Positions 11,948 through 64,000 of a stretch of DNA of 64,000 nucleotides are shown here, piece after piece. Source of the DNA: a virus; IMG/VR virus record IMGVR_UViG_3300029915_000003. The stretch is one strand, 5' to 3'. The translations under genes and the position numbers were made by a program. Numbering within the stretch: the stretch's first letter is position 1; each line of letters begins with the position of its first letter. Under the pieces are notes generated by a model that saw only the letters and a list, made by a program, of their open reading frames with translations, searched no databases and was not told where the DNA came from.

Positions 11948-12217
11948 TTACTCTTTAACCCCAGATCTATAGAAATCAGCATTTTCTATAGCGTCCTGCC
12001 TTGAACGCTCTTTTACTATTTCCTCAGCATCAACTAGACGCTCTATAGACCTTACCATTAAACCGTTATCTAATACCTCTTTAGTAGAAGTAGTCAAGGG
12101 CTTGGGATCCCTTAATAGCAACTCACCGCAAAGTTTGCACAATACGGGGATTTCTTGAGGCAGTAAACGCCTGGAACTCTTTTGGCATTTAACGCACTGA
12201 AAATGATAAATAGGCAT
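11948..12217 (-). CDS. FmdB-like zinc-ribbon protein
   Basis: MPIYHFQCVKC...CKLCG. Confidence 0.7.
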   Translation of the reverse strand: MPIYHFQCVKCQKSSRRLLPQEIPVLCKLCGELLLRDPKPLTTSTKEVLDNGLMVRSIERLVDAEEIVKERSRQDAIENADFYRSGVKE

Positions 12218-18340: not shown

Positions 18341-20608
18341 ATGGCTTCATCTCAAGACCAGCATTTTGCTAACTTTCAAAAGATACTATCCTCCAAGATA
18401 GTTGCCTATGGAGAGCACCAAGGCTCTGAAAAGGACTTTATTAAGTCTCAAAAGAAGCAAGTTCTTAAGCTTTCAAAGCTGGAAGAGATGTTTCGTAAGG
18501 AACTATTACGAACTCCTCATGGTTTGCAGGTCTACATGGAATTTATCAACTTCATTAGGGATGACCGAAAGAATATATTAGATGCCAGACCTTACTTTCG
18601 TATAAGACAAGACGTGTTCACCAAGAAGGTATCCCCAGCCTTACGAACCAGGGATCCAAAGAACATACAAAAGTGTCATTTTAACTTTACCTTTATTTCA
18701 TTTGCCATGAAATATGTAGTGTTATCACCCAATGACCCATTAACAGATATTTACGAAGAACTTAAAGAAGTAAGGAATAAGCTAATAGAAGTGAACACAC
18801 CTTTGGCAATAGCCAGAAGCAGCCAATTCTATCGTAAAACTAAAAGAAATCACTTAACCCGCATGGACCTAATCCAGGTGGCGTTGGAAGGTTTGACTGC
18901 TGGAATAGACAAGTTTTGCGGTATTTACGACAATACCAAATACCGTCATATGCTTATAGGCAGAATTACGGGCAATCTAATTGAGGCTTATTGTATTGAC
19001 GAAAACACAATATTAAACCCAATAGGCCAGCCTCCAAAGAAGATTTCAGAGTTTATTCCTGGTGATAAGATTTTAGGAATTGATGATTCTGGGGCTATTA
19101 TAGAAACAGAAGTTGTAGCATTACACGATCATGGCGTCGTGGACGGCTATGAGGTTGAATTTGCCGATGGGTATAAGATAATATGCTCAAAAAATCACAA
19201 ATTCCTTACAGAAGAAGGTCAAATCCCAATTCACGAAATAGTATCCAGAGGCTTGGGTGTGCTTTGTGAGCCCACCAATGAAAACTGGTGGTTGGACAAC
19301 TCATTGCCAAATGGTTCTACCGTCCAAGAGAAAGATGTATGCTCACAAAAAAGTATGTCCAATCTGCAAAACACTGGTATACGAGACCCGGCGCTCGAAT
19401 GGGCTGAAACTAACCTTACATCAAACTCTAACCGAAGGATGGAAAAGTCTGTGCGGTCAGACTTTTCGAACACGTCGATTGTTTTACAGTCACAGAAAAA
19501 ACTGTCAGGTTTGTCAAAAAGCCATATTGGAGGGACTTGTCGCAAGGGCCAAGAATTGGCGGAACAAGAACATGGAACGTGTTCTAGAGCACATGCGGAA
19601 TATTTCGATAGCATTTCAGGAGTCTTTACAAAAAAGACCAGACCTAAAATCGAAACACACAGAAAAGGTGAAACAAGCTTCCATGGAATGGAGGTCGAAG
19701 AATCCAGAGGAATTCATCCTCAACATGAAAAAAGCCTGGGCCGCTCAGAAACCATCCAAGATGGAAGCGTGGTTACGGTCAAGCGGAACTATAACCTGGG
19801 ACGATGTTCAAATCAGATGCGGAAAGGAAAGAAAGCAGGTGGACTTCGTTTCTCCGGATCACAAAATATGGGTAGAAGTGGATGGGAGCTTTCACTTCAA
19901 AGAAGTATCGACGAAGCCGTTGAAGCAGAGATTGCCAAAGATTCAGCAACGGGATGCCATGTTGAAGACGGAGGCCCTATTGAGGAAAGATGTGACTTTG
20001 ATCCGATTAGCGGCGGATTGTTTCTATGCGACTGGCATACTAAAAGAGCCTTGGAGGGTGTGGCTATCAAACATGCTCCTCTCACCTCGACCAGGGGTTT
20101 GGTGTTGCGGAAAGTTGTACGATTTAGCCCCATGGGCACAAGAAGGATGTACGATCTTGAGGTCGCCCACCCCAAACATAACTTCCTTTTGCCTAACGGA
20201 ATAGTTACTAGCAATTCCGAAACAATGGTTCATTTTTACCCAACAGACAAGAGAAAACTGTATAATGCAAACAAAGTAATGAATAAATGTCGTACAGAGG
20301 ATTTTCAAGAAATATCTGCCAGGGTAAATGATTTAGCTAAAGAGCATTTATACACCACTACCCCAGAAGAAGTAACACATTTAGTGGCAGCTAGTAATCT
20401 AATTAATGCCGACTTCTCACCTCCCGCCCATTCCGGTGATAACCAAACCAAGACTATACAAGATACGATGCAGTATGCCGATGTACCGGAAAAACAACCA
20501 GATATAGGTTATGAAGCACATGAATTGAGCGGCAAGTTAGCACAAGCAATACGCAAATTAACAGTATTTGAGCAAAAACTACTAAGACTCAAGGGAATGG
20601 AATTTTAA
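18341..20608 (+). CDS. sigma70-family RNA polymerase sigma factor, intein-containing (spliced product about 347 aa)
   Basis: Region 2 motif RNKLIEVNTPLAI...DLIQVALEGLTAGIDKF; region 4-like LTVFEQKLLRL; intein inserted after region 2.4. Confidence 0.75.
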   Translation: MASSQDQHFANFQKILSSKIVAYGEHQGSEKDFIKSQKKQVLKLSKLEEMFRKELLRTPHGLQVYMEFINFIRDDRKNILDARPYFRIRQDVFTKKVSPALRTRDPKNIQKCHFNFTFISFAMKYVVLSPNDPLTDIYEELKEVRNKLIEVNTPLAIARSSQFYRKTKRNHLTRMDLIQVALEGLTAGIDKFCGIYDNTKYRHMLIGRITGNLIEAYCIDENTILNPIGQPPKKISEFIPGDKILGIDDSGAIIETEVVALHDHGVVDGYEVEFADGYKIICSKNHKFLTEEGQIPIHEIVSRGLGVLCEPTNENWWLDNSLPNGSTVQEKDVCSQKSMSNLQNTGIRDPALEWAETNLTSNSNRRMEKSVRSDFSNTSIVLQSQKKLSGLSKSHIGGTCRKGQELAEQEHGTCSRAHAEYFDSISGVFTKKTRPKIETHRKGETSFHGMEVEESRGIHPQHEKSLGRSETIQDGSVVTVKRNYNLGRCSNQMRKGKKAGGLRFSGSQNMGRSGWELSLQRSIDEAVEAEIAKDSATGCHVEDGGPIEERCDFDPISGGLFLCDWHTKRALEGVAIKHAPLTSTRGLVLRKVVRFSPMGTRRMYDLEVAHPKHNFLLPNGIVTSNSETMVHFYPTDKRKLYNANKVMNKCRTEDFQEISARVNDLAKEHLYTTTPEEVTHLVAASNLINADFSPPAHSGDNQTKTIQDTMQYADVPEKQPDIGYEAHELSGKLAQAIRKLTVFEQKLLRLKGMEF
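18992..20215 (+). mobile_element. intein (408 aa) in the sigma factor
   Basis: Block A CIDENT, block B IICSKNHKFLT, block F MYDLEV, block G HNFLLPNGIVTSN followed by Ser. Confidence 0.88.
19257..20204 (+). CDS. Vsr/DUF559-like PD-(D/E)xK endonuclease with Zn finger, nested in the +1 frame inside the intein
   Basis: CPIC and CQVC; SKMEAWL; VDF...WVEVDGSFH; RD...LIRL; AGAGG 5 nt before the GTG. Confidence 0.75.
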   Translation: MCFVSPPMKTGGWTTHCQMVLPSKRKMYAHKKVCPICKTLVYETRRSNGLKLTLHQTLTEGWKSLCGQTFRTRRLFYSHRKNCQVCQKAILEGLVARAKNWRNKNMERVLEHMRNISIAFQESLQKRPDLKSKHTEKVKQASMEWRSKNPEEFILNMKKAWAAQKPSKMEAWLRSSGTITWDDVQIRCGKERKQVDFVSPDHKIWVEVDGSFHFKEVSTKPLKQRLPKIQQRDAMLKTEALLRKDVTLIRLAADCFYATGILKEPWRVWLSNMLLSPRPGVWCCGKLYDLAPWAQEGCTILRSPTPNITSFCLTE

Positions 20609-26006: not shown

Positions 26007-27947
26007 ATGGCCAAGAAAAAACAACCAGAATTAAATGCCCTGGAAGAGGTTCTGAGTCTAAATAAGACAGAAGTTGGTCCTCATCTGGGGAAACGCTTAA
26101 TTACTGCTTTGGAAAATACAGTAGAATCAGATGTTAAATCTGTTAATCGTATAGGTTTTACTGTAGATCCGGTATCTGAGTCCCAAAATTCTTACTCTAC
26201 TATTTTCGTATACAAACCCCAATTCCTCTTAAGCGACATAATGCTTAAAAGGGTCGCCAGGGGAGATGAACTTGTAGCTGCCATAGCTACTGCCCGCTCA
26301 AACATGCTTGGTAGCTTTGGAGCACCAAGGGCGGATCGGTTTTCGTTTGGTCATAAAATTGTAATTAAACCAGAACTGGCCCATGAGTTAGATCAAGACA
26401 CAAAGGATGGTTTAAAGAAAAAGGTAGACGTTGTTGTTGATAAATTGGTAAAATGCGGTTCAGATCTTAAGGATGGAGACCATCTAAGCCTACGAGAGTT
26501 CCTGCACATCCAAGCTCGCTCAGCCATTATTTTGGGTAGATTTGCTACGGAGCGCATTTACAGGGATAATCCTTTTACTAATAAGAAGGAATTCTTCGCC
26601 TTCCGCCCTATAGATGCGGGCACTATATATGTAGCTACCAATCAACAACGGGCAGCAGCTAAGATCCGGGAAGAAGCCCGCAAGACCCTTAAAAGACTAC
26701 GTAGGGACAAGCATATAGATGAAACTTTCGAAATAGACCGTTTCGAAAACGATGAATATAAATGGATTCAAGTAATTAACAATCAACCCAAACAAGCATT
26801 TACTGATGATGAGTGCTGTGTAATTAATTGCTATCCCGTTCAAGACTTTGAGTTGTGCGGGTATCCCTTAACTCCTATAGATACGGTTATTTCGGCTATT
26901 ACCACTCACATTAATATCTCTGTATGGAATAAAGGCTATTTCCAGAACGGAAGAGCCAGCAGGGGTATGTTGGTTATTAAATCGGACGATGTTACAGAGC
27001 GGGAAGTTGGCTTGATTAGACAGCAATTCCAAGCCTCTATTAATGGGGCCAGCGCAGCCTTCCGTATGCCTGTCTTTGGCGTTCCTGAAAAGTCGGATAT
27101 CAACTGGATGCCAATTGATGCTGGCTCTAGGGATATGGAATTTCAATACCTTTCAGACTCCAATGCCCGTACTATCTTGTCTGCCTTTCAAATCTCTCCG
27201 GAAGAAATTCCAGGTCTGGCCCATCTTTCCAGGGGTAGCAGTGCTCAAGACACCTCTGAATCTAATGGCGAATACATGCTTACCGCTCATAGAGATGTAG
27301 GCTTGCGCCCCCTGGTAAACATCTTTGAGACTTTCTTGAATGAACAAATCCTACCCCTTCTAGACGAAGAGGTAGCTCGCTATTGTACAGTTAAATTACT
27401 AGGATTAGAAGCCGATACCGCCGAAAAGGAATCAGTACGATTCCAAACTGACGGCCCCATCCACATGGAGTATGATGAGATCCTACAACGGGTAGAGAAA
27501 CCTACTGTTGGTAAGGAATGGGGAGGTAAATTCCCTCTAAATCCTCAATGGCAGTCAATTATAGATAAATATCTATATGTGGATGAAATTCGTACACATT
27601 TCTTTGGATTGCCCCCAGATCCAAATTTCCACTACGTAAGGGACCCTTATAATTTTCAATTTCTCCAGTTTAATTTCCAAAAACAACAAATGGAAATGCA
27701 AATGAAAATGCAGGAACAAGCAATGGCCGAACAGGGAGCCCAAGCCCCTTCTTCTCCAGCAGGCGGGAGTATGAGCCCCACACCCCCTGGAGAAGAAGGA
27801 GTGAATGCACAAAACCTACCTAAAACCAAGGATCCCAACTATGTCAATGCCCAAAATGAAAAACCCAATATGGCAGTAAATGCCACAGAGGGTCAACTTT
27901 CAGAAGCTGCGGGGAAAGCAGGAGAAGCTTTTGGAGCTAAACCCTAA
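26007..27947 (+). CDS. portal protein
   Basis: FRPIDAGTI, YPLTPID, YFQNGR...GML, DMEFQ, AFQISPEEI and GLRPL motifs. Confidence 0.88.
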   Translation: MAKKKQPELNALEEVLSLNKTEVGPHLGKRLITALENTVESDVKSVNRIGFTVDPVSESQNSYSTIFVYKPQFLLSDIMLKRVARGDELVAAIATARSNMLGSFGAPRADRFSFGHKIVIKPELAHELDQDTKDGLKKKVDVVVDKLVKCGSDLKDGDHLSLREFLHIQARSAIILGRFATERIYRDNPFTNKKEFFAFRPIDAGTIYVATNQQRAAAKIREEARKTLKRLRRDKHIDETFEIDRFENDEYKWIQVINNQPKQAFTDDECCVINCYPVQDFELCGYPLTPIDTVISAITTHINISVWNKGYFQNGRASRGMLVIKSDDVTEREVGLIRQQFQASINGASAAFRMPVFGVPEKSDINWMPIDAGSRDMEFQYLSDSNARTILSAFQISPEEIPGLAHLSRGSSAQDTSESNGEYMLTAHRDVGLRPLVNIFETFLNEQILPLLDEEVARYCTVKLLGLEADTAEKESVRFQTDGPIHMEYDEILQRVEKPTVGKEWGGKFPLNPQWQSIIDKYLYVDEIRTHFFGLPPDPNFHYVRDPYNFQFLQFNFQKQQMEMQMKMQEQAMAEQGAQAPSSPAGGSMSPTPPGEEGVNAQNLPKTKDPNYVNAQNEKPNMAVNATEGQLSEAAGKAGEAFGAKP

Positions 27948-42330: not shown

Positions 42331-42501
42331 ATGGAATTTAACAAAAGATTGTTCAAGTCCTTTAGATTTTGTAAACACGATTGGATTGAAGAACATACCG
42401 AGTTGGAGTATTTAAAATATAGGGAAGAATTGTTATTTGATTGCGATCTTTGTAAAAAAACTGTAGTGTACAATCTTAAGGCCAGGGAATCCCGAGAGTA
42501 A
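42331..42501 (+). CDS. YxRxCxH/CxxC microprotein family member
   Basis: Manual translation: SFRFCKH...CDLC...YNLKAR. Confidence 0.6.
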   Translation: MEFNKRLFKSFRFCKHDWIEEHTELEYLKYREELLFDCDLCKKTVVYNLKARESRE

Positions 42502-43436: not shown

Positions 43437-43730
43437 ATGTTTAAAATAGGCCGCGCTACATTTTGTGATTCTTGTGGTAATATACGTTTAACTAAGGTTT
43501 TAAACCAAGGCAAGACCAATCACCACGAAATGCTATTGGGGCGATTTGATCGTCACTCAATTATCCATCAAGAACCAAGCGAATTCCCATATACTTGCTT
43601 GGACTGCAAGAAGGTTGTCACCGACCCAAACGCTCCGGCTCCAGTGGTGGCTCCAGTGGTAACCAAGGTCTCCGTAAAGACCCCAGAACCGGTTATCCAC
43701 CTAGCTCCTGAAGATGAAATCAAGGAATAA
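43437..43730 (+). CDS. small zinc-binding protein
   Basis: CDSC...CLDC. Confidence 0.55.
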   Translation: MFKIGRATFCDSCGNIRLTKVLNQGKTNHHEMLLGRFDRHSIIHQEPSEFPYTCLDCKKVVTDPNAPAPVVAPVVTKVSVKTPEPVIHLAPEDEIKE

Positions 43731-44707: not shown

Positions 44708-44793
44708 GGTCCCCACTCTACCAAAGAGAGTAAGAGGTGTCAAGGGGGTTGCAAAAAATCGTTAGGTGTGTTAGATTCAAACATTGGAGTGAA

Positions 44794-45000
44794 ATGAAAA
44801 GACTATACTTTTATTTACGCTTGTGTAGGCATAAACCTACATATCTTTCTTTGTTAGAGACAGATGCCAGTACCGCCTGGATCACATGTAAGGATTGCTG
44901 TGACAATATAATTGGCTATTATAGGTTTGATTTTACAAATAGGTGCATCAAAAGGGTTAAAAGCTACTTACAAGGAAAGGGTGAAAAGTCAGGAGAATGA
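44794..45000 (+). CDS. YxRxCxH/CxxC microprotein
   Basis: YLRLCRH...CKDC; GGAG RBS; TTGCAA-N17-TAGATT promoter upstream. Confidence 0.65.
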   Translation: MKRLYFYLRLCRHKPTYLSLLETDASTAWITCKDCCDNIIGYYRFDFTNRCIKRVKSYLQGKGEKSGE

Positions 45001-45182
45001 ATAAAGTATTAATAATACAGCCCTGTAAGCACAATAAGTTGATAAACTATACAGACTCAGAAGTATATTGGGCTGCTATGGAATGTATAGCTTGTGATAG
45101 ATACTACTTTTTCAACTTTTTAACCAGACAGCTTATTTTTGAAGAACCCAAAGGTGTTGGTTGGTATAGAGTAAGAAAATGA
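44997..45182 (+). CDS. YxRxCxH/CxxC microprotein
   Basis: IIQPCKH...CIAC; ATGA coupling. Confidence 0.65.
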   Translation: MNKVLIIQPCKHNKLINYTDSEVYWAAMECIACDRYYFFNFLTRQLIFEEPKGVGWYRVRK

Positions 45183-45523
45183 TTAAAAATCCCATTTATG
45201 TACGTCCATGTAAGCACAACACCTACTCTGGTGTAGGTTACTACATAATAGACAACCAATTAAGCTACGAGTGCGAACAATGCACTATGTTTTTTCAAAA
45301 GAAGGATCATAGAGTTGACCTTATATATTACGCTTTTACAGGAGAAAGAAAAATAAAACCAATAGTAAAATGGTGGAATGAAGGATATTTCACTTACACT
45401 ACATGGGAACAATTTTTGTCTTGCCATAATAGACTTCGGAATAAGTTGGAATATTATCTGTTTAAAATTTTGTACTTTTTGGCTAGATTCTTCTGGGTCA
45501 TTATTGATAACGATTTTTTTTAG
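45179..45523 (+). CDS. YxRxCxH/CxxC microprotein with hydrophobic C-terminal extension
   Basis: YVRPCKH...CEQC. Confidence 0.65.
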   Translation: MIKNPIYVRPCKHNTYSGVGYYIIDNQLSYECEQCTMFFQKKDHRVDLIYYAFTGERKIKPIVKWWNEGYFTYTTWEQFLSCHNRLRNKLEYYLFKILYFLARFFWVIIDNDFF

Positions 45524-45549
45524 GATACCATCCTACCTAGACCTACATC

Positions 45550-45783
45550 ATGATAAATACAATCAAAGAATTTAACATCTACTTCCGGTTCTGCAAACAC
45601 ATCTTTGGATATACTTGTTATTTGTCCAAAGAAAACTTCCTGTTTCAAGGTAAGAGTGAACCTATAATAAGAAGATGGGTGTTTTGTAATGATTGCAAAA
45701 AATACTTTACCATTAATGAACGGCTTGTGATTCCCAACAGAATTACCAAAAAGTCTAACCTTCTAGATTCGGTACTGGGTTAA
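45550..45783 (+). CDS. YxRxCxH/CxxC microprotein
   Basis: YFRFCKH...CNDC. Confidence 0.65.
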   Translation: MINTIKEFNIYFRFCKHIFGYTCYLSKENFLFQGKSEPIIRRWVFCNDCKKYFTINERLVIPNRITKKSNLLDSVLG

Positions 45784-45930
45784 ATGAGATCTTTCTACTA
45801 TATACGTGTATGTAGGTCGTGCGTATATTCCAATAATGTATTTGACTATTTTTGCTGTATACATTGCAAACTGGATCATGTAATTAGGGATAGAATTGTT
45901 GAAAATATTGAATGTGGAGTCTGGATATGA
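45784..45930 (+). CDS. YxRxC/CxxC microprotein (variant)
   Basis: Manual translation: YIRVCRSC...CIHC. Confidence 0.55.
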   Translation: MRSFYYIRVCRSCVYSNNVFDYFCCIHCKLDHVIRDRIVENIECGVWI

Positions 45931-45961
45931 AAAACACCCTTGTGTATTCTATTGGTACCAC

Positions 45962-46162
45962 ATGAAAACCCATCCCTATTACCGTCCTTGCCCACATGTA
46001 CATACATACGACTCTGGTAAATACGGAAAGTTCTTTTCCAACCCATTAAGTGAATGTATGTATTGCAATCTGAGTCTAATAGCTAACGATAGGGCTGTTT
46101 ATACTATAGATTTGTACTCCGATGATTACGATGATTTCGAAGAAGATGGTTCCATATTGTGA
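45962..46162 (+). CDS. YxRxCxH/CxxC microprotein
   Basis: YYRPCPH...CMYC. Confidence 0.65.
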   Translation: MKTHPYYRPCPHVHTYDSGKYGKFFSNPLSECMYCNLSLIANDRAVYTIDLYSDDYDDFEEDGSIL

Positions 46163-46317
46163 AATATAAATTACCCTATTACAGACCTTGCAAACACTCC
46201 CAAGGAATAATGAAGTCTTGCTCAACCTGCTCAGTCTACTTGTTGGATAGAGTTTGTCATAAAATAGTCAACTTTTCTAATTGGACCGGAATGGGACCGC
46301 TTAATTCGGGCAAATAA
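46159..46317 (+). CDS. YxRxCxH/CxxC microprotein
   Basis: Manual translation: YYRPCKH...CSTC; GTGA coupling. Confidence 0.6.
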   Translation: MKYKLPYYRPCKHSQGIMKSCSTCSVYLLDRVCHKIVNFSNWTGMGPLNSGK

Positions 46318-46318
46318 T

Positions 46319-46489
46319 ATGAAAAACGTACTATTTGTAAGACCATGTAGGCATTTGTACGATACAGATAATTACGCTTCTTGGGAAGGTATGGGGTGTT
46401 CTGATTGTAGAATAAGGTATTATTTCGATTATACAAACCGATACCTTTCCTTCCGTAAATACAGAATAATACTCCGGAATACCAAATGA
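46319..46489 (+). CDS. YxRxCxH/CxxC microprotein
   Basis: Manual translation: FVRPCRH...CSDC. Confidence 0.6.
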   Translation: MKNVLFVRPCRHLYDTDNYASWEGMGCSDCRIRYYFDYTNRYLSFRKYRIILRNTK

Positions 46490-46665
46490 AATACAACTTT
46501 TACACTAGATACTGCCCTCACTATTTCAATGCATACGAAGATGAAGATGAATACGATTTATTGGCACTAATATGCTGTGGTTATTGCGGAGTACTCCACT
46601 ACCAATTTAAACTCTCCAGCCGAACCCTGATCGTATCCAAATGCGATTATTTGGGCGATGAATGA
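46486..46665 (+). CDS. YxRxCxH/CxxC microprotein
   Basis: Manual translation: YTRYCPH...CGYC. Confidence 0.6.
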   Translation: MKYNFYTRYCPHYFNAYEDEDEYDLLALICCGYCGVLHYQFKLSSRTLIVSKCDYLGDE

Positions 46666-46690
46666 TATTTTGGGATTTTGATAGAGACAA

Positions 46691-46783
46691 ATGAATAATA
46701 TAATATCTAAATACTATAAGTCCTTCCCTTACGTAAGATTTTTGGGTCACTATGCCCGACTCTTAACCTCAATACTGGCCTAA
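46691..46783 (+). pseudogene. degenerate microprotein family member
   Basis: PYVRFLGH (Cys lost), truncated; paralog of 47416-47580. Confidence 0.45.
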
Positions 46784-46804
46784 ACCCCTGGATTAAGCCT
46801 TGCT

Positions 46805-47032
46805 ATGTATAACAAAACCAACCTACCCTATTACCGTCCTTGCCCCCATACATATACCTATGATACGATTAGATATAATAAGTTCTGTTTAAATCCCTTA
46901 AGAGATTGTACGTATTGCTCCACCTCCCTAACTGTTAACGAAAGGAATGTTGAAGCCATGGAACTATACAACAAATACTACTACGAAGAGGATGAAATTG
47001 AAATACAATTTACCTTATGTAAGACAATGTAG
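46805..47032 (+). CDS. YxRxCxH/CxxC microprotein
   Basis: YYRPCPH...CTYC; close paralog of 45962-46162. Confidence 0.65.
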   Translation: MYNKTNLPYYRPCPHTYTYDTIRYNKFCLNPLRDCTYCSTSLTVNERNVEAMELYNKYYYEEDEIEIQFTLCKTM

Positions 47033-47171
47033 GCATCTATACGATCCAATTCTGTTCTACCTATACGAAGTAGGTGCGTCGTGCCGTGATTGTCGAATCG
47101 TATACTTTTTCAACGATACAACCCGACAACAGGATAGCCGTAAATACCTACCTATACCCAAAAACCAATGA
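46992..47171 (+). CDS. YxRxCxH/CxxC microprotein
   Basis: YVRQCRH...CRDC. Confidence 0.62.
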   Translation: MKLKYNLPYVRQCRHLYDPILFYLYEVGASCRDCRIVYFFNDTTRQQDSRKYLPIPKNQ

Positions 47172-47398
47172 AATATACTTTTTATACCAGATATTGCCCT
47201 CATTCCTATAATGCCCCTAAAGATGTCCATATATGCGATTTATTGGAAATGTATTGTTGCACCCCTTGCGGGGAATCCCATTTCCTATTTAGACTCACCG
47301 ACCGAACCTTAATTACTACCAAATGTGATTTTTACAACCAAGAGGAAACAAACCGTATCCCTATCCCCGACCTCTTACAGTTTTTAAACACACCTTAA
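47168..47398 (+). CDS. YxRxCxH/CxxC microprotein
   Basis: YTRYCPH...CTPC; paralog of 46486-46665. Confidence 0.65.
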   Translation: MKYTFYTRYCPHSYNAPKDVHICDLLEMYCCTPCGESHFLFRLTDRTLITTKCDFYNQEETNRIPIPDLLQFLNTP

Positions 47399-47415
47399 TA
47401 CCCTCTGAAAACCCA

Positions 47416-47580
47416 ATGTATAAACTATCCCCATACTATAAATACAAACCCTACGTAAGGTTTTGCGGCCACCCCTCGATCTGCTTTTGGGATTCTTACT
47501 CCCACTTGTGCCTTATATGCCAAACACAAACAAGGTTTGATACAATTACCAGGGAAATAAGTTTTATAGAAAAATTATAA
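47416..47580 (+). CDS. YxRxCxH/CxxC microprotein
   Basis: Manual translation: YVRFCGH...CLIC. Confidence 0.6.
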   Translation: MYKLSPYYKYKPYVRFCGHPSICFWDSYSHLCLICQTQTRFDTITREISFIEKL

Positions 47581-47592
47581 TAAGGATCCTCC

Positions 47593-47763
47593 TTGAAACC
47601 AACCAAATCCCCCTTGTCCCAAAATTCCCCATACCGTCGCCCCTGCAAACACCTTTTCGTTGCCCTTAAATTACAAATCGAATTATGGCTACAAACAAAC
47701 AATACTACCGTAGACGCTCTTTGTATGGTGAAAATGGAAGAACACCCGACCTTTCTTTTTTAG
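47593..47763 (+). CDS. YxRxCxH microprotein (CxxC degenerate)
   Basis: Manual translation: YRRPCKH; TTG start after TAAGGA. Confidence 0.45.
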   Translation: MKPTKSPLSQNSPYRRPCKHLFVALKLQIELWLQTNNTTVDALCMVKMEEHPTFLF

Positions 47764-47821
47764 ATATAAAATTTTTATAAAAAAAATTGGATTTAACTTA
47801 AAGGGACTACAGAGTAAATAC

Positions 47822-47920
47822 CCCTGGTAACGGTTCCTTGGTAATGGTTCCTTGGTAATGGTTCTTAACGTAACGGTTCCTTGGTAACGGTTCCTTGGTA
47901 ACGGTTCCTTGGTAACGGTT
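47822..47920. repeat. tandem repeat, 7 x about 14 bp (CCTTGGTAACGGTT)
   Basis: Read directly from the sequence; four of the seven units carry small variants. Confidence 0.9.
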
Positions 47921-48088
47921 TTATTAGGGGAAAATTATCTTAAAAATTCCAGGTGTAATACGTAAAGTCCCCCCAAACCCCAAAACCCCCTATCCTACCC
48001 AGGGGAACCTCCCCGGATAGTATCACCTATACCCCCCCCCGTGATTACCCTGTAAGGAATAACCCCTAAGACTAAGGTCCAGGATCCT

Positions 48089-48238
48089 TGGCAAGGATCT
48101 TGCTTGGTAAACCCGGTATGTTTATTGCATAGGGGAACCGGCATGGTTATTGCTAGTGGTAGCGTGGCAACGATATTGCAAGGATCCTAATGGTATGGTT
48201 ATTGCATAGGGATTTCGTTGCTTGCAAGCCTTATGCCA
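48089..48238. promoter_or_regulatory. phased array of sigma54 -24/-12 boxes
   Basis: YGGYA...TTGCW (GG-N10-GC) at 48089, 48114, 48139, 48165 and 48191 (+) and 48223-48238 (-). Confidence 0.75.
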
Positions 48239-48278
48239 TATCATTAGCAATGGTTTCCCGGCTATGGTCCCTTTGGAT

Positions 48279-48294
48279 TGTTCCACGTGGAACA
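48279..48294. promoter_or_regulatory. parS site
   Basis: TGTTCCACGTGGAACA inside a perfect 24-bp palindrome at 48275-48298. Confidence 0.8.
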
Positions 48295-48389
48295 ATCCTG
48301 CGCGTGCGCATGTGTGTGTATGTGGATGTGAGTGTATGCCCACATCTATATATGGTGTGTCGTACCCAAGACCTAGGTCTCAAGCTTTC

Positions 48390-48432
48390 TGGGGATAACC
48401 TGTTAGTAAGCTGTTAGTAAGCCTGTGGATAA
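48390..48432 (-). promoter_or_regulatory. DnaA-box cluster
   Basis: TGGGGATAA, TGTTAGTAA x2 and a perfect TGTGGATAA at 11-12 bp spacing. Confidence 0.65.
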
Positions 48433-49007
48433 CTTTTGGCACGGATCTTGTCTAGGCGTTTTCAGCGTCTGGACGGGATAGAGCCTAGGGATCCTCGGGC
48501 CGCGCTAGGAAGGGCGGATCCGCTCGTTTAATTGGCATTTAGCGCAAAGCGTCATTTAATCCGACTTTAGTCTTATTTTTGAGACCCTAAGCAAGATCCT
48601 TGCCAAAGAGTCTAAGCTATGTCGGCACGTTTGTTGCTACGCGCGCGGGCGCTTGATCCTTTGGTAAGGGATTAGAATTTCCCCTACGGGGAGAAACCGT
48701 TCGTTTGAGACGACGACGCATTGCGTCAAGAGTTTTACGTTAGGGGAATTCGAGGATTCCTCTAGCGGTCTAACCCCTTGAATTCCTTACTGTACAGTTT
48801 CACTACAGACTATGACAACCTTGTCCTAGTGACTTTTCTCAATGGTTTCATACAGTTAACCCTTTTTAGACCTTAGTCCTATGATCCAAGCGTCTCGATC
48901 CTGTCTGTTTTGCTGTACCATTTGGATCGTTTCCCCTACGGGGAGAGATCGTTCGATCCCATTGTAATCATTACACTTTTTTCCCCGCCCTGTTTTGGCG
49001 TAACGCT

Positions 49008-49023
49008 TGGCATGGCCGCTGCA
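49008..49023 (+). promoter_or_regulatory. candidate sigma54 promoter for the DUF932 operon
   Basis: TGGCATGGCCGCTGCA (GG-N10-GC), about 155 bp upstream of the ATG. Confidence 0.4.
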
Positions 49024-49178
49024 TAATAGGCCATTATCTCAGTTTGGTTCGCTCCTCTCTCTCTCCGAGGCGTTTCCCCTCTCCCCGCTGTTTCCCTCTA
49101 CAGAAAAAGGATTGACGGCCCCCTTCTTCTCTGGTACAACCTTCCCCGCTGTTTCCCTCTACGAAAAGGATCCTCCCC

Positions 49179-54765: not shown

Positions 54766-55257
54766 ATGAGCGACTCCGAAGCATTGGCAACCTTGAAGCG
54801 ATATCTGCGCGGCGCGAACCTGAACGGTGCGGACCTGTGCGACGCGAACCTGCGCAACGCGAACCTGCGCGACGCGAACCTGAGCGGTGCGGACCTGTGC
54901 GGTGCGAACCTGAGCGGTGCGAACCTGCGCGACGCGAACCTGAGCGACGCGGACCTGAGCGGTGCGAACCTGTGCGACGCGGACCTGAGCGGTGCGGACC
55001 TGAGCGGTGCGAACCTGAGCGGTGCGAACCTGAGCGACGCGAACCTGTGCGGTGCGGACCTGAGCGGTGCGGCCCTGTGCGGCGCGGACCTGAGCAACGC
55101 GGCGGACCTGAGCATCGCGGACCTGAGCGGTGCGAACCTGAGCGGTGCGGACCTGAGCGACGCGCACCTGAGCGGTGCGGCCCTGCGCAACGCGGACCTG
55201 AGCGGCGCGTATTTTTACAACCACGGAACTCTCTACAAGGTCGCCTCGGCGATCTAA
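54766..55257 (+). CDS. pentapeptide repeat protein
   Basis: A(D/N)LxG/D repeats. Confidence 0.85.
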
Positions 55258-55533: not shown

Positions 55534-56055
55534 ATGGGATACATGTCCTTCCGAAACGCTACCAAGCAAGACATTATCTCTAAGATTTTGGGGGATAGTG
55601 GTTACACCATTTATGATCATTGCCTTAAGGGTAATGTGCTTTGGACTGTCCAGTCGCAAGCGTTGGTTTACGCACCGCGTTACATCGGTTGTTACATACT
55701 GGAAAGCCGCGAAGATGGATATGCTTATAAGGCTTTGAGCGAAGGTGATTACCCTTACTATTTCGATTGTCCCACATCCTTCTTCAAACAGGCCCCTACC
55801 CCCTATAACGAAAATGCGGTCAAGTGGCGCGCACGTTGCGAGTCCCTCCGGCAAGAGCTGAAGCGTGTTAAGGGGTCGCTGGCTATTGGCAATGTCGTTC
55901 CGTTGATCTTCGGATGCACGGTGGAGGGTTCCCCCGTTGCGTCTGTGCGAGTCGTTTCCGTTCGCCCTTTGATGGTTGAACGGCTGGACGTTCCAGGCGT
56001 GTTCAAGCTGCCCCGTAAGTTTATCGATACCAATGTCAATCGGACCGCTCTTTAA
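55534..56055 (+). CDS. DUF6927-like protein
   Basis: YAYK..SE...PYYFDCP...WR.RC. Confidence 0.55.
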   Translation: MGYMSFRNATKQDIISKILGDSGYTIYDHCLKGNVLWTVQSQALVYAPRYIGCYILESREDGYAYKALSEGDYPYYFDCPTSFFKQAPTPYNENAVKWRARCESLRQELKRVKGSLAIGNVVPLIFGCTVEGSPVASVRVVSVRPLMVERLDVPGVFKLPRKFIDTNVNRTAL

Positions 56056-56869: not shown

Positions 56870-57576
56870 ATGAAAACCTACACGCAAAAAGAACTTTCCG
56901 AAACCCTCCGTTTGCATAAACTCTGGTTAGAAGGTAAGACCGAAGGTGTACAGGCCGATCTGTACGATGCCGATCTGTCCGGGGCCGATCTGTCCGGGGC
57001 CAATTTGACCGGGGCTAATTTGACCGGGGCCAATCTGTCCGGGGCTAATTTGACCGGGGCCAATCTGTCCGGGGCTATTCTGACCGGGGCCGACCTGACC
57101 GGGGCCAATCTGACCGGGGCCGACCTGACCGGGGCCAATCTGGAAGGGGCCAAATTGACCGGGGCCAATCTGTCCAGGGCCAATCTGTCCAAGGCCAATC
57201 TGTCCAAGGCCGATCTTACCGGGGCCAATCTGAGCGGGGCCAACGGTTTCCCAGAAGAGGAAATTGCCAAGCGTCAAATTGTACCGAAGGAAGGGGAGTT
57301 TATTGGTTACAAAAAGCTTGGAAACGGTACGGTGGCGAAGCTTTTGATTCCGGCCGGGGCCAAGCGCATCGGGGGATGACCGATCGCAAGTGTCGGGCTG
57401 AGTTCGCAACGGTACTGGAAGGATCCGGCTTTTCCCGGTATGATTCTTCTTTTGAGTACCGTTGCGGGGAAACCGTTTATCCAACTACTGAAAATCCCTT
57501 CAACCCAGATCCTTTGGTGAAATGTTCTGGGGGGATCCATTTTTTTCTTACCCCAGAAGAAGCCGAAGCTTATTAA
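56870..57576 (+). pseudogene. pentapeptide repeat + DUF5758-like protein split by a 1-nt frameshift in a G5 tract
   Basis: ORFs 56870-57379 and 57376-57576 together align with the intact paralog 58991-59821. Confidence 0.75.
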
Positions 57577-57738: not shown

Positions 57739-58464
57739 TTGGACTCTACTCTGTTTAAGCCTATCCATAAGCTTCGCAACACTTACCGACCCATTGCTAA
57801 GGAACTAGAAAAGGATATCATCCTTAAGGCTCAAGCAGGGGACAAGAAGTCTCGTGATTTACTGGTAAACAGTAATATGGGACTGGTCATTAAGGAAGCC
57901 CGCAAACAGGCTGGTAGGAAACTGGATATTAATGATTTGGTACAGGTTGGAGCAATGGCCCTATTGGAAACCATTGATAAGTTTGATACCAGTAAGGATT
58001 TGAAGTTTATTACCTACGCCAAGTGGCTGGTGGTAAGCCGTATGCAACGATACCGGGCGGCTCAAAGCGGTATTGTTCATTACGATACCGATAAAACCCG
58101 GCAAGAAGGATATGGGGCTAAAAGGTCGGATCAAAGCCTAAATGAGATTTATTCCAATAGCAAAAAGAATGACATTGAAGGTGATGTGGAGTACCAAGAC
58201 CTTTTAGTGTGTGATGAACCCACCCCAGAAGATAACGCTATTCGCTCTCAAACAAATGGAGAGGTAGCCCTATTTATGGATAATCTTCAAAAGACCCTTA
58301 CCCCTATGGAGAAAGAGTTTATTCCCCGTATTGGTGAAAAAGAGAAGAACAGGGTTCCGCTTCATGAAATCGGTAAAAAGTATGGGTATTGCCGGGAATC
58401 GGTACGACAAAAAGAGGCTAAACTGGTAGCTTGTTTGGCAAATGACCTTAAGGAATACGCATAA
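57739..58464 (+). CDS. sigma70-family sigma factor (RpoH/SigF-like size)
   Basis: LVNSNMGLV, DLVQVG..AL...DKFD...KFITYAKW and LHEIG..YG..RESVRQ.E. Confidence 0.88.
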   Translation: MDSTLFKPIHKLRNTYRPIAKELEKDIILKAQAGDKKSRDLLVNSNMGLVIKEARKQAGRKLDINDLVQVGAMALLETIDKFDTSKDLKFITYAKWLVVSRMQRYRAAQSGIVHYDTDKTRQEGYGAKRSDQSLNEIYSNSKKNDIEGDVEYQDLLVCDEPTPEDNAIRSQTNGEVALFMDNLQKTLTPMEKEFIPRIGEKEKNRVPLHEIGKKYGYCRESVRQKEAKLVACLANDLKEYA

Positions 58465-58602
58465 CAATCGGAACAAAAGGCTTGACACCATTTACGAGAA
58501 AACTCCCCGAAACGTAACAATTAAATAGGATTTATCTTCAAATCCCAAGCTTGACACCTCGAAATGTTCGTGCTACATTGGCAAGACAATGGAGGGGACG
58601 CA

Positions 58603-58968
58603 ATGGACATTTTGATTTTGGATGATGAAGATGTTAGACACTCTGAGTTCGCCAAGCGTTTTCGGGAGCATAACGTATTCCATACCAAGGATCCTTGGGA
58701 AGCTGTTTGCTGGATGAAGGAACGTAAGTTCGATTTGGTTTCTTTAGACCATGACCTTAACTGGTTCGAGTTTACACCCTACAAGCAGGAGATCACTGGT
58801 ACTGAGGTTGCACGTGCGATGCTTGCCCTTCCTGGCGAAAATAGGCCCGGTGAAATTCATATCCACAGTTGGAATCCAGATGGAGCGCGGCGGATGTTTC
58901 TGATTTTGAAAGAGGCCGGGTTTGTTCATATCATCCGCAACCCTTTTACTGCAATTAAATCCATTTAG
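58603..58968 (+). CDS. cyclic-phosphate-processing receiver-like (cREC) domain protein
   Basis: ILDD, SLDHDL, TG..V and HSWNP.GA..M; TTGACA-N17-TACATT promoter. Confidence 0.72.
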   Translation: MDILILDDEDVRHSEFAKRFREHNVFHTKDPWEAVCWMKERKFDLVSLDHDLNWFEFTPYKQEITGTEVARAMLALPGENRPGEIHIHSWNPDGARRMFLILKEAGFVHIIRNPFTAIKSI

Positions 58969-58990
58969 CCCCATAAAAAGGACAATTCCC

Positions 58991-59821
58991 ATGAAAACCT
59001 ACACGCAAAAAGAACTTTCCGAAACCCTCCGTTTGCATAAGCTTTGGTTAGAAGGTAAGGCTGGAGGTGTACTGGCCAATCTGTACGGGGCTATTCTGTC
59101 CGGGGCCAATCTGTCCGAGGCTATTCTGTCCGGGGCCGAACTGATCAGGGCCAAATTGACCGGGGCCAATCTGTCCGGGGCCGAACTGATCAGGGCCAAT
59201 CTGTCCGGGGCCGAACTGATCAGGGCCAATCTGACCGGGGCCAAATTGACCGGGGCCAATCTGTCCGGGGCCAATCTGTCCGGGGCCAATCTGTCCGGGG
59301 CCGATCTGTACGGGGCCACACTGACCTGGGCCACACTGACCTGGGCCAAATTGACCGGGGCCAATCTGTCCGGGGCTAATCTACGCGGGGTCAATCTGTC
59401 CGGGGCCAATCTGTCCGAGGCCAATCTGTCCGGGGCTAATCTGTCCGGGGTCAATCTGTCCGGGGCCAATCTACGCGGGGCCAAAAACTTTCCCCCGAGG
59501 GAGATAGCCAAGCGTCAAATTGTTCCCCCCGTAGGTGAATTTATCGGTTACAAGAAGGTTTACAATAGAACTCGGGGGGCAGTCGTAATTGGTTTGCGAA
59601 TTCCAGCCGGAGCCAAGCGTGTTGGGGGCGTAATTGGTCGAAAGTGTCGAGCGTCTTGCGTTGTCGCTCTTGGAAGTGGCGTAAGCAATTTCGATGGAAG
59701 CTTCAAGTATACCAAGGGGAAGAAGGCTAAACCCAAGAAGCCTTTTAATCCAGATCCCTTGGTGGAATGCACTAGCGGGATCCACTTCTTTTTGACACCA
59801 GAAGAAGCCGTAGACTATTAG
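58991..59821 (+). CDS. pentapeptide repeat protein with C-terminal DUF5758-like domain
   Basis: Repeats followed by FIGYKK, RKCRA and C..GIHFF...EEA..Y. Confidence 0.85.
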   Translation: MKTYTQKELSETLRLHKLWLEGKAGGVLANLYGAILSGANLSEAILSGAELIRAKLTGANLSGAELIRANLSGAELIRANLTGAKLTGANLSGANLSGANLSGADLYGATLTWATLTWAKLTGANLSGANLRGVNLSGANLSEANLSGANLSGVNLSGANLRGAKNFPPREIAKRQIVPPVGEFIGYKKVYNRTRGAVVIGLRIPAGAKRVGGVIGRKCRASCVVALGSGVSNFDGSFKYTKGKKAKPKKPFNPDPLVECTSGIHFFLTPEEAVDY

Positions 59822-62039: not shown

Positions 62040-62309
62040 GTGAAAAAGCTAATTATTGGTCTATTATTGCTATTGATTGGATGCAGCCAAGAGCCATTCC
62101 TACAAGAAGACAACATTTGTGCTGTATACTACTGTAATGGTAATGTAACACTTCTTACATATCAAGACGGTCAAGGGGTGTGTCTATGTGAGTGTAAGGA
62201 TGGTGGTATCGGTGTTTATGCTCCGGCACCTCTATTGAACGTATCCAGCCAAGAACTTTCCCGTATCGTTAGAGTTCAGCAACAATGGGCGGCGATGTGT
62301 TCAAACTAA
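62040..62309 (+). CDS. putative lipoprotein
   Basis: MKKLIIGLLLLLIGC lipobox. Confidence 0.6.
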   Translation: MKKLIIGLLLLLIGCSQEPFLQEDNICAVYYCNGNVTLLTYQDGQGVCLCECKDGGIGVYAPAPLLNVSSQELSRIVRVQQQWAAMCSN

Positions 62310-62461
62310 TATACATCAGACCTTGTAAGCACAGGTGGGGAGTTATGGGATACAATCTAGTTAGTATTAACTGTATTTGCGATAGATGCTTGCGCGCAGG
62401 AGAGAGCCGCGTTCGGGTGTTTAATTTCAATATAAGAAACTTCAGCCATATGGGCATTTAA
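62297..62461 (+). CDS. YxRxCxH/CxxC microprotein
   Basis: Manual translation: YIRPCKH...CDRC...FNFNIR. Confidence 0.58.
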   Translation: MFKLIYIRPCKHRWGVMGYNLVSINCICDRCLRAGESRVRVFNFNIRNFSHMGI

Positions 62462-62608
62462 ATGGTGACAAACATATACGTAAGGTACTGCTGCAAGCAT
62501 TTTAGCTATGGTTTATATCTAAGTCCTGTTAGTCTTACTTTTGTTGTTTTTTGTGAGAGTTGTGGTGTTTTGAACTTTTCCTTAAACGAACGTAAGATGA
62601 TTCATTGA
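62462..62608 (+). CDS. YxRxCxH/CxxC microprotein
   Basis: Manual translation: YVRYCCKH...CESC...FSLNER. Confidence 0.58.
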   Translation: MVTNIYVRYCCKHFSYGLYLSPVSLTFVVFCESCGVLNFSLNERKMIH

Positions 62609-63542: not shown

Positions 63543-64000
63543 ATGAAAACCCCTACGCCTGATGAACTTTCCGAAACCCTCCGTTTGCACCAACTCTGGT
63601 TAGAAGGTAAGGCTGGAGGTGTACGGGCCAATCTGTCCGGGGCCAATCTGACCGGGGCCGACCTGACCGGGGCTATTCTGTACGAGGCCAATCTGTACGG
63701 GGCTATTCTGACCGGGGCTATTCTGTACGAGGCCAATCTGTACGGGGCTAATCTGACCGGGGCTAATCTGACCGGGGCTAATCTGTCCGGGGCCAATCTG
63801 TCCCAAGCCAATCTGACCGGGGTCGATCTGTCCTGGGCCAATCTGTCCAAGGCCGATCTGGAAGGGGCCAATCTGTCCAAGGCCGATCTGTCCGGGGCCG
63901 ATCTGTACGGGGCCGATCTGTACGGGGCCTATCTGGAATGGGCCAATCTGACCGGGGCCGACCTGACCGGGGCTATTCTGTACGAGGCCAATCTGTACGG
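63543..64000 (+). CDS. pentapeptide repeat protein, partial (runs off the window)
   Basis: [23 protein letters not shown] followed by ANLxG repeats; not in the ORF track. Confidence 0.85.
   Translation, partial: MKTPTPDELSETLRLHQLWLEGKAGGVRANLSGANLTGADLTGAILYEANLYGAILTGAILYEANLYGANLTGANLTGANLSGANLSQANLTGVDLSWANLSKADLEGANLSKADLSGADLYGADLYGAYLEWANLTGADLTGAILYEANLY

Follow-up and report, generated by a model that had tools for sequence, protein, structure and literature searches.

Members of the Family in the Window

The window analyzed here is a stretch of 64,000 nt (IMG/VR record IMGVR_UViG_3300029915_000003) that represents part of the genome of a large uncultured tailed phage. Between positions 44794 and 47763, on the + strand, it carries a tandem array of very small genes, and the proteins that they encode share a conserved set of Cys and His residues. 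A preliminary description of this DNA had counted about 15 copies in the array and about 18 in the window. A family profile was derived from an alignment of 16 copies (A1) and compared, with the filters off, with the 1366 stop-to-stop open reading frames (ORFs) of at least 25 amino acids (aa) in the window. Sixteen ORFs, all on the + strand, were clearly separated (E-values from 1.7e-19 to 6.5e-10), followed by copy m15 at 5.8e-4; the best unrelated ORF had an E-value of 0.1. The earlier counts were borne out, since 13 intact and two decayed copies (m10 and m15) in the array and three intact outliers give a total of 18. The intact array copies span positions 44794-47580. The outliers start at 42331, 62285, and 62462; the first and the last are the positions initially reported, while the start of the second had been given as 62297 and was moved to the ATG at 62285.

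When translated in six frames, the window contains 14 occurrences of a strict motif for the N-terminal part of the proteins, [YFWVIL]-x-[RQK]-x-C-[KRPG]-H. All are on the + strand; 13 of them fall in the interval 44812-47632 and the other is at 62312. In 30 shuffles of the window, the motif occurred 1.2 times on average and at most 4 times.

The array opens with three intact copies, m01 (44794-45000, 68 aa, E 2.6e-17), which displays YLRLCRH followed by CKDC, m02 (44997-45182, 61 aa, E 2e-18), in which a Gln replaces the conserved Arg, and m03 (45179-45523, 114 aa, E 5.1e-16), which has a long aromatic and hydrophobic C-terminal extension. Two further intact copies follow: m04 (45550-45783, 77 aa) has the longest loop between its two pairs of ligands (28 residues), and m05 (45784-45930, 48 aa, E 3.8e-11) has a Cys at +3 instead of a His at +2 (C-R-S-C). 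The remaining copies, except the last one, fall into two related blocks, A and B. Block A is opened by the acidic m06 (45962-46162, 66 aa, pI 4.6) and continues with m07 (46159-46317, 52 aa), which starts with GTG, has the shortest loop (7 residues) and is without a partner in block B, the basic m08 (46319-46489, 56 aa, pI 9.6), the acidic m09 (46486-46665, 59 aa, pI 4.9), and m10 (46691-46783), a truncated ORF of 30 aa in which the first Cys is changed to Leu and whose DNA shares 72% identity with the beginning of m14. Block B consists of m11 (46805-47032, 75 aa), the paralog of m06, whose extended C-terminus overlaps m12 by 41 nt, the basic m12 (46992-47171, 59 aa), paralog of m08, m13 (47168-47398, 76 aa, E 1.7e-19), paralog of m09, and m14 (47416-47580, 54 aa, E 6.5e-10), the intact counterpart of the m10 remnant. 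The last copy, m15 (47593-47763), is a 56-aa ORF with a TTG start that has kept YRRPCKH and lost the CxxC, and it is probably a decayed copy, judging from its sequence.

The three outliers are also encoded on the + strand. Copy o1 (42331-42501, 56 aa, E 5e-13) is isolated, whereas o2 (62285-62461, 58 aa, E 1.8e-14) and o3 (62462-62608, 48 aa, E 1e-15) abut each other, and the first knuckle of o3 reads C-C-K-H with the His at +3. An 89-aa ORF at 62040-62309, with a lipoprotein-type N-terminus (a hydrophobic stretch leading to LIGC), overlaps the start of o2 by 25 nt.

Protein Architecture and Predicted Fold

Most copies are 48-77 aa long, with one of 114 aa. The alignment of the 16 intact copies is invariant at Met1 and at three Cys and nearly so at one Arg, and the Met is found 9-10 residues upstream of the first Cys in most cases. 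The first knuckle has the form aromatic-x-Arg-x-Cys-x-His, with the His at +2 in 14 of the 16 copies. Four candidate metal ligands, arranged as C-x-H or C-x-x-C/H and then CxxC, are present in all 16; m05 and o3, with a Cys and a His at +3, respectively, substitute another ligand, as would be expected if the metal site is genuine. Between the two knuckles lies a loop of 7 to 28 residues that is unalignable between most copies. A second Arg follows the CxxC, with a polar residue before it and an aliphatic one after it. This region had been described as an aromatic-x-[FL]-x-x-x-R strand; the pattern hydrophobic-x3-4-[DNEST]-R-x-[LIV] fits its surroundings better. Pairwise identity among the copies has a median of about 19% and a maximum of 54%. 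The suggestion of an expanded protein-coding family on a conserved Cys/His scaffold is thus upheld by 16 intact copies that have four ligands each and are very divergent between these ligands.

AlphaFold2 (AF2), run with the 16-sequence alignment, predicted the same topology for m08 (predicted local distance difference test, pLDDT, of 70.6) and m09 (60.6): a strand leading into the CxxC and then a two-stranded hairpin, with no strand around the first knuckle. The top profile matches in the Protein Data Bank (PDB) were the zinc ribbons of Elf1 (E 0.29) and Rpb12 (E 0.34), both non-significant. The 56-residue model gave no significant fold match either, the best Z-score being 3.4 with VIA-align, and no structure in PDB or BFVD being found at E ≤ 0.001 with Foldseek. 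Of the zinc-ribbon scaffold first proposed, the four-ligand Cys/His scaffold is supported; with this modest pLDDT and non-significant matches, a zinc-ribbon-like fold is only probable. The four Cys/His residues would most likely hold one zinc ion, which may give a stable fold to a protein that is too small to possess much of a hydrophobic core.

The isoelectric points (pI) of the intact copies range from 4.6 to 9.8; 11 of the 16 are basic (pI > 8.4), four are acidic (4.6-5.8), and one is neutral. These properties bear on the main rival to the interpretation developed below, namely that the copies are nucleic-acid-binding proteins, acting as specific regulators of transcription or translation or as structural DNA-binding proteins. 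A ribbon-like scaffold with two conserved Arg, one by the first knuckle and one on the predicted hairpin, and the predominance of basic copies would both suit such a role. It is also in line with the origin of the weak best PDB matches in the transcription machinery (Elf1 and Rpb12), with the precedent of Bacillus phage G (PMC7824862), and with a sigma-factor-like gene in the same part of the genome. However, these PDB matches are non-significant, five copies are acidic or neutral, no repeated operator-like DNA motif is tied to the family, and 16 or more regulators seem a large number for a genome of about 163 kb. On balance, we consider this explanation somewhat unlikely.

Coding Capacity and Selection

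The conservation of the motif is found at the amino-acid level, as the codons used for the conserved residues vary synonymously. For the conserved Arg, five codons from two codon families are used (CGC, CGT, CGG, AGA, and AGG); the first Cys is encoded by TGT and TGC in an 8:8 ratio and the His by CAT and CAC in a 6:8 ratio, and both Cys codons are also used at the two later Cys. A DNA-level motif without codon-position bias, which had been named initially as a result that would refute the protein family, was thus not what we found, and a DNA-level repeat was rejected on the same grounds.

Three pairs of paralogs could be aligned codon by codon. The ratios of nonsynonymous to synonymous substitution rates (dN/dS, NG86) were 0.35 for m06/m11, 0.48 for m08/m12, and 0.22 for m09/m13, with dS values of 0.96-1.6. 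When the pairs were pooled and divided into regions, dN/dS was 0.11 in the N-terminal motif, 0.37 in the loop, and 0.43 from the CxxC onward. In addition, a codon model trained on the long genes of the phage ranked the annotated frame best of six in 14 of the 18 copies, with a summed score of +29 for the annotated frames against -227 or lower for each of the other five. The intact copies are protein-coding genes under purifying selection.

It was nonetheless considered whether the copies could be functionless leftovers of duplication, or a repeat or motif at the DNA level that has stayed open by chance. The two decayed copies, the lack of a Shine-Dalgarno sequence in most copies, and codon-model scores near zero would be compatible with this idea, but synonymous codons vary at every conserved residue, dN/dS is 0.11-0.48 at a dS of about 1, 16 frames are still open despite a median identity of about 19%, and Shine-Dalgarno sequences are scarce throughout the phage. 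This explanation is strongly disfavored and appears highly improbable. We conclude that the copies very probably constitute a real, selected, and lineage-specific family of metal-scaffold proteins.

Organization of the Array and Candidate Promoter

The array forms one close-packed unit on the + strand (44794-47763) in which start and stop codons often overlap. ATGA overlaps were found at four junctions (m01/m02, m02/m03, m08/m09, and m12/m13) and a GTGA overlap at one (m06/m07), in agreement with the couplings reported initially. At two other junctions the genes are 0 or 1 nt apart, and the other gaps are 12-31 nt long. Because the array junctions either overlap or leave at most 31 nt, the 86-nt divergent intergenic region upstream of m01 is the sole place with room for a promoter. 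It contains a weak candidate sigma70-like site on the + strand, TTGCAA-17 nt-TAGATT (44749-44777). This is probably the site meant by the single sigma70-type promoter postulated for the array; it matches the consensus at 8 of 12 positions, which is under the threshold of the scanner, and promoter-like sites in the region were not in excess over shuffled sequences (18 vs. 19.3). The array copies would be transcribed together from this one upstream region and may be translationally coupled. Shine-Dalgarno sequences are absent from most copies; as they were found, on a lenient count, in only 19 of 42 long genes across the phage, their lack in the array is uninformative.

Three of the overlapping pairs join copies of opposite charge: m06/m07 (pI 4.6/9.6), m08/m09 (9.6/4.9), and m12/m13 (9.3/5.8). 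Such coupled neighbors might be heterodimers, in which case the array would specify a small number of hetero-oligomeric complexes instead of many independent binders. The contrast in pI within each pair, the GTGA or ATGA overlap that joins its members, and the duplication of m08-m09 as a unit to give m12-m13 are all consistent with this possibility. Yet m01, m02, and m03, which are coupled in the same way, are all basic, and we regard heterodimers as the general explanation of the array as quite improbable.

Duplication, Decay, and Present-Day Variation

Comparison of the array DNA with itself revealed three colinear matches, 45974-46066 with 46826-46918 (74% identity), 46336-46651 with 47018-47333 (65%), and 46698-46750 with 47420-47472 (72%), which identify block A (m06-m10) and block B (m11-m14) as the products of an old duplication. 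The array has grown by repeated tandem duplication, including that of this old block of four to five genes. After the block was duplicated, block A acquired m07 or block B lost it, m10 degenerated, and the tail of m11 was lengthened. The nearest relatives of the outliers are found within the array (m07 for o2, m04 for both o3 and o1), indicating that copies have also moved. Together with the two decayed copies, this history is one of birth-and-death evolution.

Over 41-51 kb, the identity among ten independent assemblies of the phage is 99.76-100%, and within the array these assemblies differ by two single-nucleotide polymorphisms (SNPs, at 46307 and 46919) and by no insertion or deletion. The variability is thus one between ancient paralogs and is not ongoing. 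The hypervariability between the ligands noted from the sequence is therefore real when old paralogs are compared and is not seen between assemblies. A target of diversity-generating retroelements (DGR) or of phase variation was considered and rejected for the same reason, with two SNPs across the ten assemblies.

A 14-nt tandem repeat, TGGTAACGGTTCCT, is present in 6.8 copies immediately 3' of the array (47825-47920) and is one unit shorter in 2 of the 10 assemblies. Several contigs terminate or carry runs of N at 47920-48029, a site of long C runs.

Distribution of the Family

Relatives of the family were sought in protein and profile collections. In Pfam-A, with which eight copies were scanned, nothing was found below an E-value of 0.016 and no match was above the gathering score, and in PHROGs v4 no match was significant, with three single-member hits at E-values of 0.0026-0.0095. 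A profile search of 1.84 billion representative proteins yielded eight real hits, all of them proteins of the window itself; a 2265-aa protein at 2.7e-4 was judged spurious. Half of the copies in the window were missing from these hits, most likely because short genes are often left uncalled. As short genes are under-sampled in protein libraries, absence from them is weaker evidence, and six-frame searches of DNA were added. Word-index searches of 5.8e9 clusters (A1, A2) also returned the proteins of the window only.

At the DNA level, blastn in distant mode found no match to the array among GenBank phages, and tblastn of m08, m13, and m02 gave nothing, or noise at an E-value of 6. Scans of viral, metagenome, and species-genome collections with the pattern [PI]Y[YVI]RPC[KP]H produced pattern hits and no relative; the scan of metagenomes also missed the phage's own JGI contigs, which that collection may lack. 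The preliminary description had not recognized the family, and the profile searches of Pfam, PHROGs, PADLOC, PDB, and the representative proteins likewise connected it to no well-characterized family.

Related phages were then examined. The portal protein of the window used alone retrieved no related loci, and an alignment of this protein with the portal of Myxococcus phage Mx1 retrieved 71 loci from IMG/VR, with 25-52% portal identity. Using hmmsearch as for the window, nothing was found in two complete relatives (best E-value 0.11) or in the 71 related loci. The Mx1 genome had no match to the family profile, and ten long related genomes, seven of which are rated complete, gave only one match of 12.6 bits, within a frame of 1450 aa. 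BLAST clustering of small ORFs linked 4 of the 16 copies and generated low-complexity artefacts in GC-rich relatives, and it was replaced by a count of ORFs with the two-knuckle pattern. By this count, 17 small ORFs, 16 of them family members, were present in the 64-kb window, compared with 6 unrelated ORFs in a complete relative of 155 kb. As far as present data go, the family appears to be restricted to this phage lineage.

Genomic Context of the Array

The tailed phage to which the window belongs encodes a portal protein (26007-27947, Pfam Phage_portal), which shares 49% identity with the portal of Mx1 and about 22% with SPO1-type portals. The window also encodes a GroEL-like chaperonin, four tRNAs, and an intein-containing B12-type ribonucleotide reductase. 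Matches to intein-splicing domains were obtained in two genes, at 5231-8173 (- strand) and 18341-20608 (+ strand), and the ribonucleotide reductase also has a LAGLIDADG domain. The gene that adjoins the array is known from contigs of up to 162,820 bp; the analysis covered 21 contigs with this gene, from ENA, JGI, and Logan assemblies.

Clear homologs of head-module genes were detected by tblastn in three complete related genomes, whereas the genes tested between 42527 and 64000 had no convincing match in the same three genomes. The single marginal match from this arm was obtained for 55534-56055, in one relative (26% identity, E 6e-6). Since the head genes are matched and the arm genes are not, the arm is lineage-specific and accessory: the array is located in an accessory arm of about 21 kb without a counterpart in related phages.

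The composition of the DNA also changes along the window, with a G+C content of 0.38-0.42 up to about position 48,000 and of 0.50-0.54 thereafter. A region of about 1.4 kb without a long ORF (47764-49178) coincides with the jump in G+C from 0.38 to 0.53. Among the complete IMG/VR genomes, the relatives with the most similar portals (about 50% identity) have a G+C content of 58-60%, compared with about 40% in the phage of the window, so that this phage lies far from its relatives in composition and presumably also in host.

Besides the array, the arm contains a MazG-like gene on the opposite strand, and genes for a DUF932 protein, a DUF7275 protein, and an HNH-like protein. It also encodes four pentapeptide-repeat proteins (54766-55257, 56870-57379, 58922-59821, and 63543-64000), two of which have a DUF5758 tail, and their repeats appear at the DNA level as 15-nt tandem arrays. 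A gene for a sigma-factor-like protein (57739-58464, Sigma70_r2, E 3.8e-12) precedes one for a protein with a cREC_REC receiver domain (58564-58968, E 5.4e-13). Two small proteins of the CxxC...CxxC type that do not belong to the family are encoded at 43437-43730 and 11951-12217 (- strand); the 97-aa one of the two has a weak match to the NOB1 ribbon (E 0.006).

Possible Function of the Array

The most economical interpretation of these data is that the array encodes a collection of small binding modules that differ in their targets and serve in the interaction with the host, be it take-over, regulation, or counter-defense. It is based on the combination of a conserved scaffold with unrelated loops and tails, varied charge, purifying selection, operon-like packing, and location in an accessory arm, and we assign it a probability of roughly 45%. 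Each copy would bind a different host or phage macromolecule, either protein or nucleic acid; the metal scaffold would remain constant, and the loop, the faces of the predicted hairpin, and the tails vary from copy to copy.

Several results weigh against this interpretation. Positive selection was not observed in the loops, regional dN/dS being 0.11-0.43 in a comparison where dS is near saturation and sites are few. The near-identity of the array in the ten assemblies means that no current arms-race turnover is visible. The PADLOC-DB search gave no match to a known anti-defense or defense-related profile (one hit, E 0.017). Confidence in the AF2 models is modest (pLDDT 60.6-70.6) and they have no significant fold match. 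Finally, the 11 basic copies and the two conserved Arg suit binding to nucleic acids as well as to proteins.

A more elaborate form of the binding-module interpretation would combine it with the pairing of coupled neighbors. A minimal Cys-His-Cys-Cys scaffold, which one phage lineage either invented or changed beyond recognition, would have been amplified into a repertoire of specific binders directed against the defenses or the machinery of the host, with neighbors of opposite charge acting as heterodimers. This combination is rather unlikely. If such a repertoire existed, it would be a library of natural mini-binders made by a phage, and one instance of a wider, so far undescribed habit of large phages.

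Large phages spend sizeable parts of their genomes on expanded families of tiny proteins to which no function is assigned. The array offers a clean case of this kind, with an orphan scaffold of about 55 residues present in 16 intact copies under selection, a duplication history that can still be read, and decayed members, and it shares its accessory arm with pentapeptide proteins of the DNA-mimic type and a sigma-factor-like protein of the phage. Were the copies specific binders, each would already be a small probe or inhibitor acting on some host process, and the family would provide a clue to how new host-interaction proteins arise in phages. Were they regulators instead, a phage of about 163 kb would have DNA- or RNA-binding factors of its own in unusually large number.

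Comparison with Known Systems

The classical zinc ribbons, such as those of Elf1 and Rpb12/RpoP, resemble the family in their four ligands, two knuckles, and a CxxC followed by a β-hairpin with basic residues (a hairpin that is predicted in the family), but their first knuckle is also CxxC, whereas it is C-x-H in the family of the window. The zinc-binding anti-sigma (ZAS) domain, H-x3-C-x2-C, was rejected as a relative, as the conserved His of the family stands 7-28 residues before the CxxC and no Pfam match was found; metallothioneins were likewise discarded, Cys making up only 5-12% of the copies. The host-takeover module of SPO1, a distantly related myovirus, consists of small early genes; like the array, it has many small genes packed closely together in the genome of a large myovirus. 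The SPO1 takeover genes are not known to be paralogs of one family or to encode Cys/His proteins.

The closest described case is Bacillus phage G, in which a zinc-ribbon expansion of about 35 copies has been reported (Iyer et al. 2021, PMC7824862). This published parallel amounts to one sentence in a comparative paper, where the expanded proteins were proposed to be regulators of transcription or translation or structural DNA-binding proteins (PMC7824862). Both cases are many-copy, lineage-specific, and partly tandem expansions of a small protein with Cys ligands in a large phage. The proteins differ: those of phage G (gp32, gp34, gp35, and gp37) are about 92-117 aa long, with CPIC as first knuckle, C-x3-C as second, and a C-terminal helix of the ENDRYL type, whereas the copies in the window measure 48-77 aa, with one of 114 aa, and have a C-x-H first knuckle. 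The family profile had no match in the phage G record (497,513 bp), and hhalign gave a probability of 1.3% against gp32, gp34, gp35, and gp37. The comparison of their sequences indicates that the two expansions are analogous and not homologous. Lineage-specific expansion of a small metal-binding protein is thus a phenomenon known in kind, and what appears to be new here is the orphan sequence family together with its unusual C-x-H knuckle.

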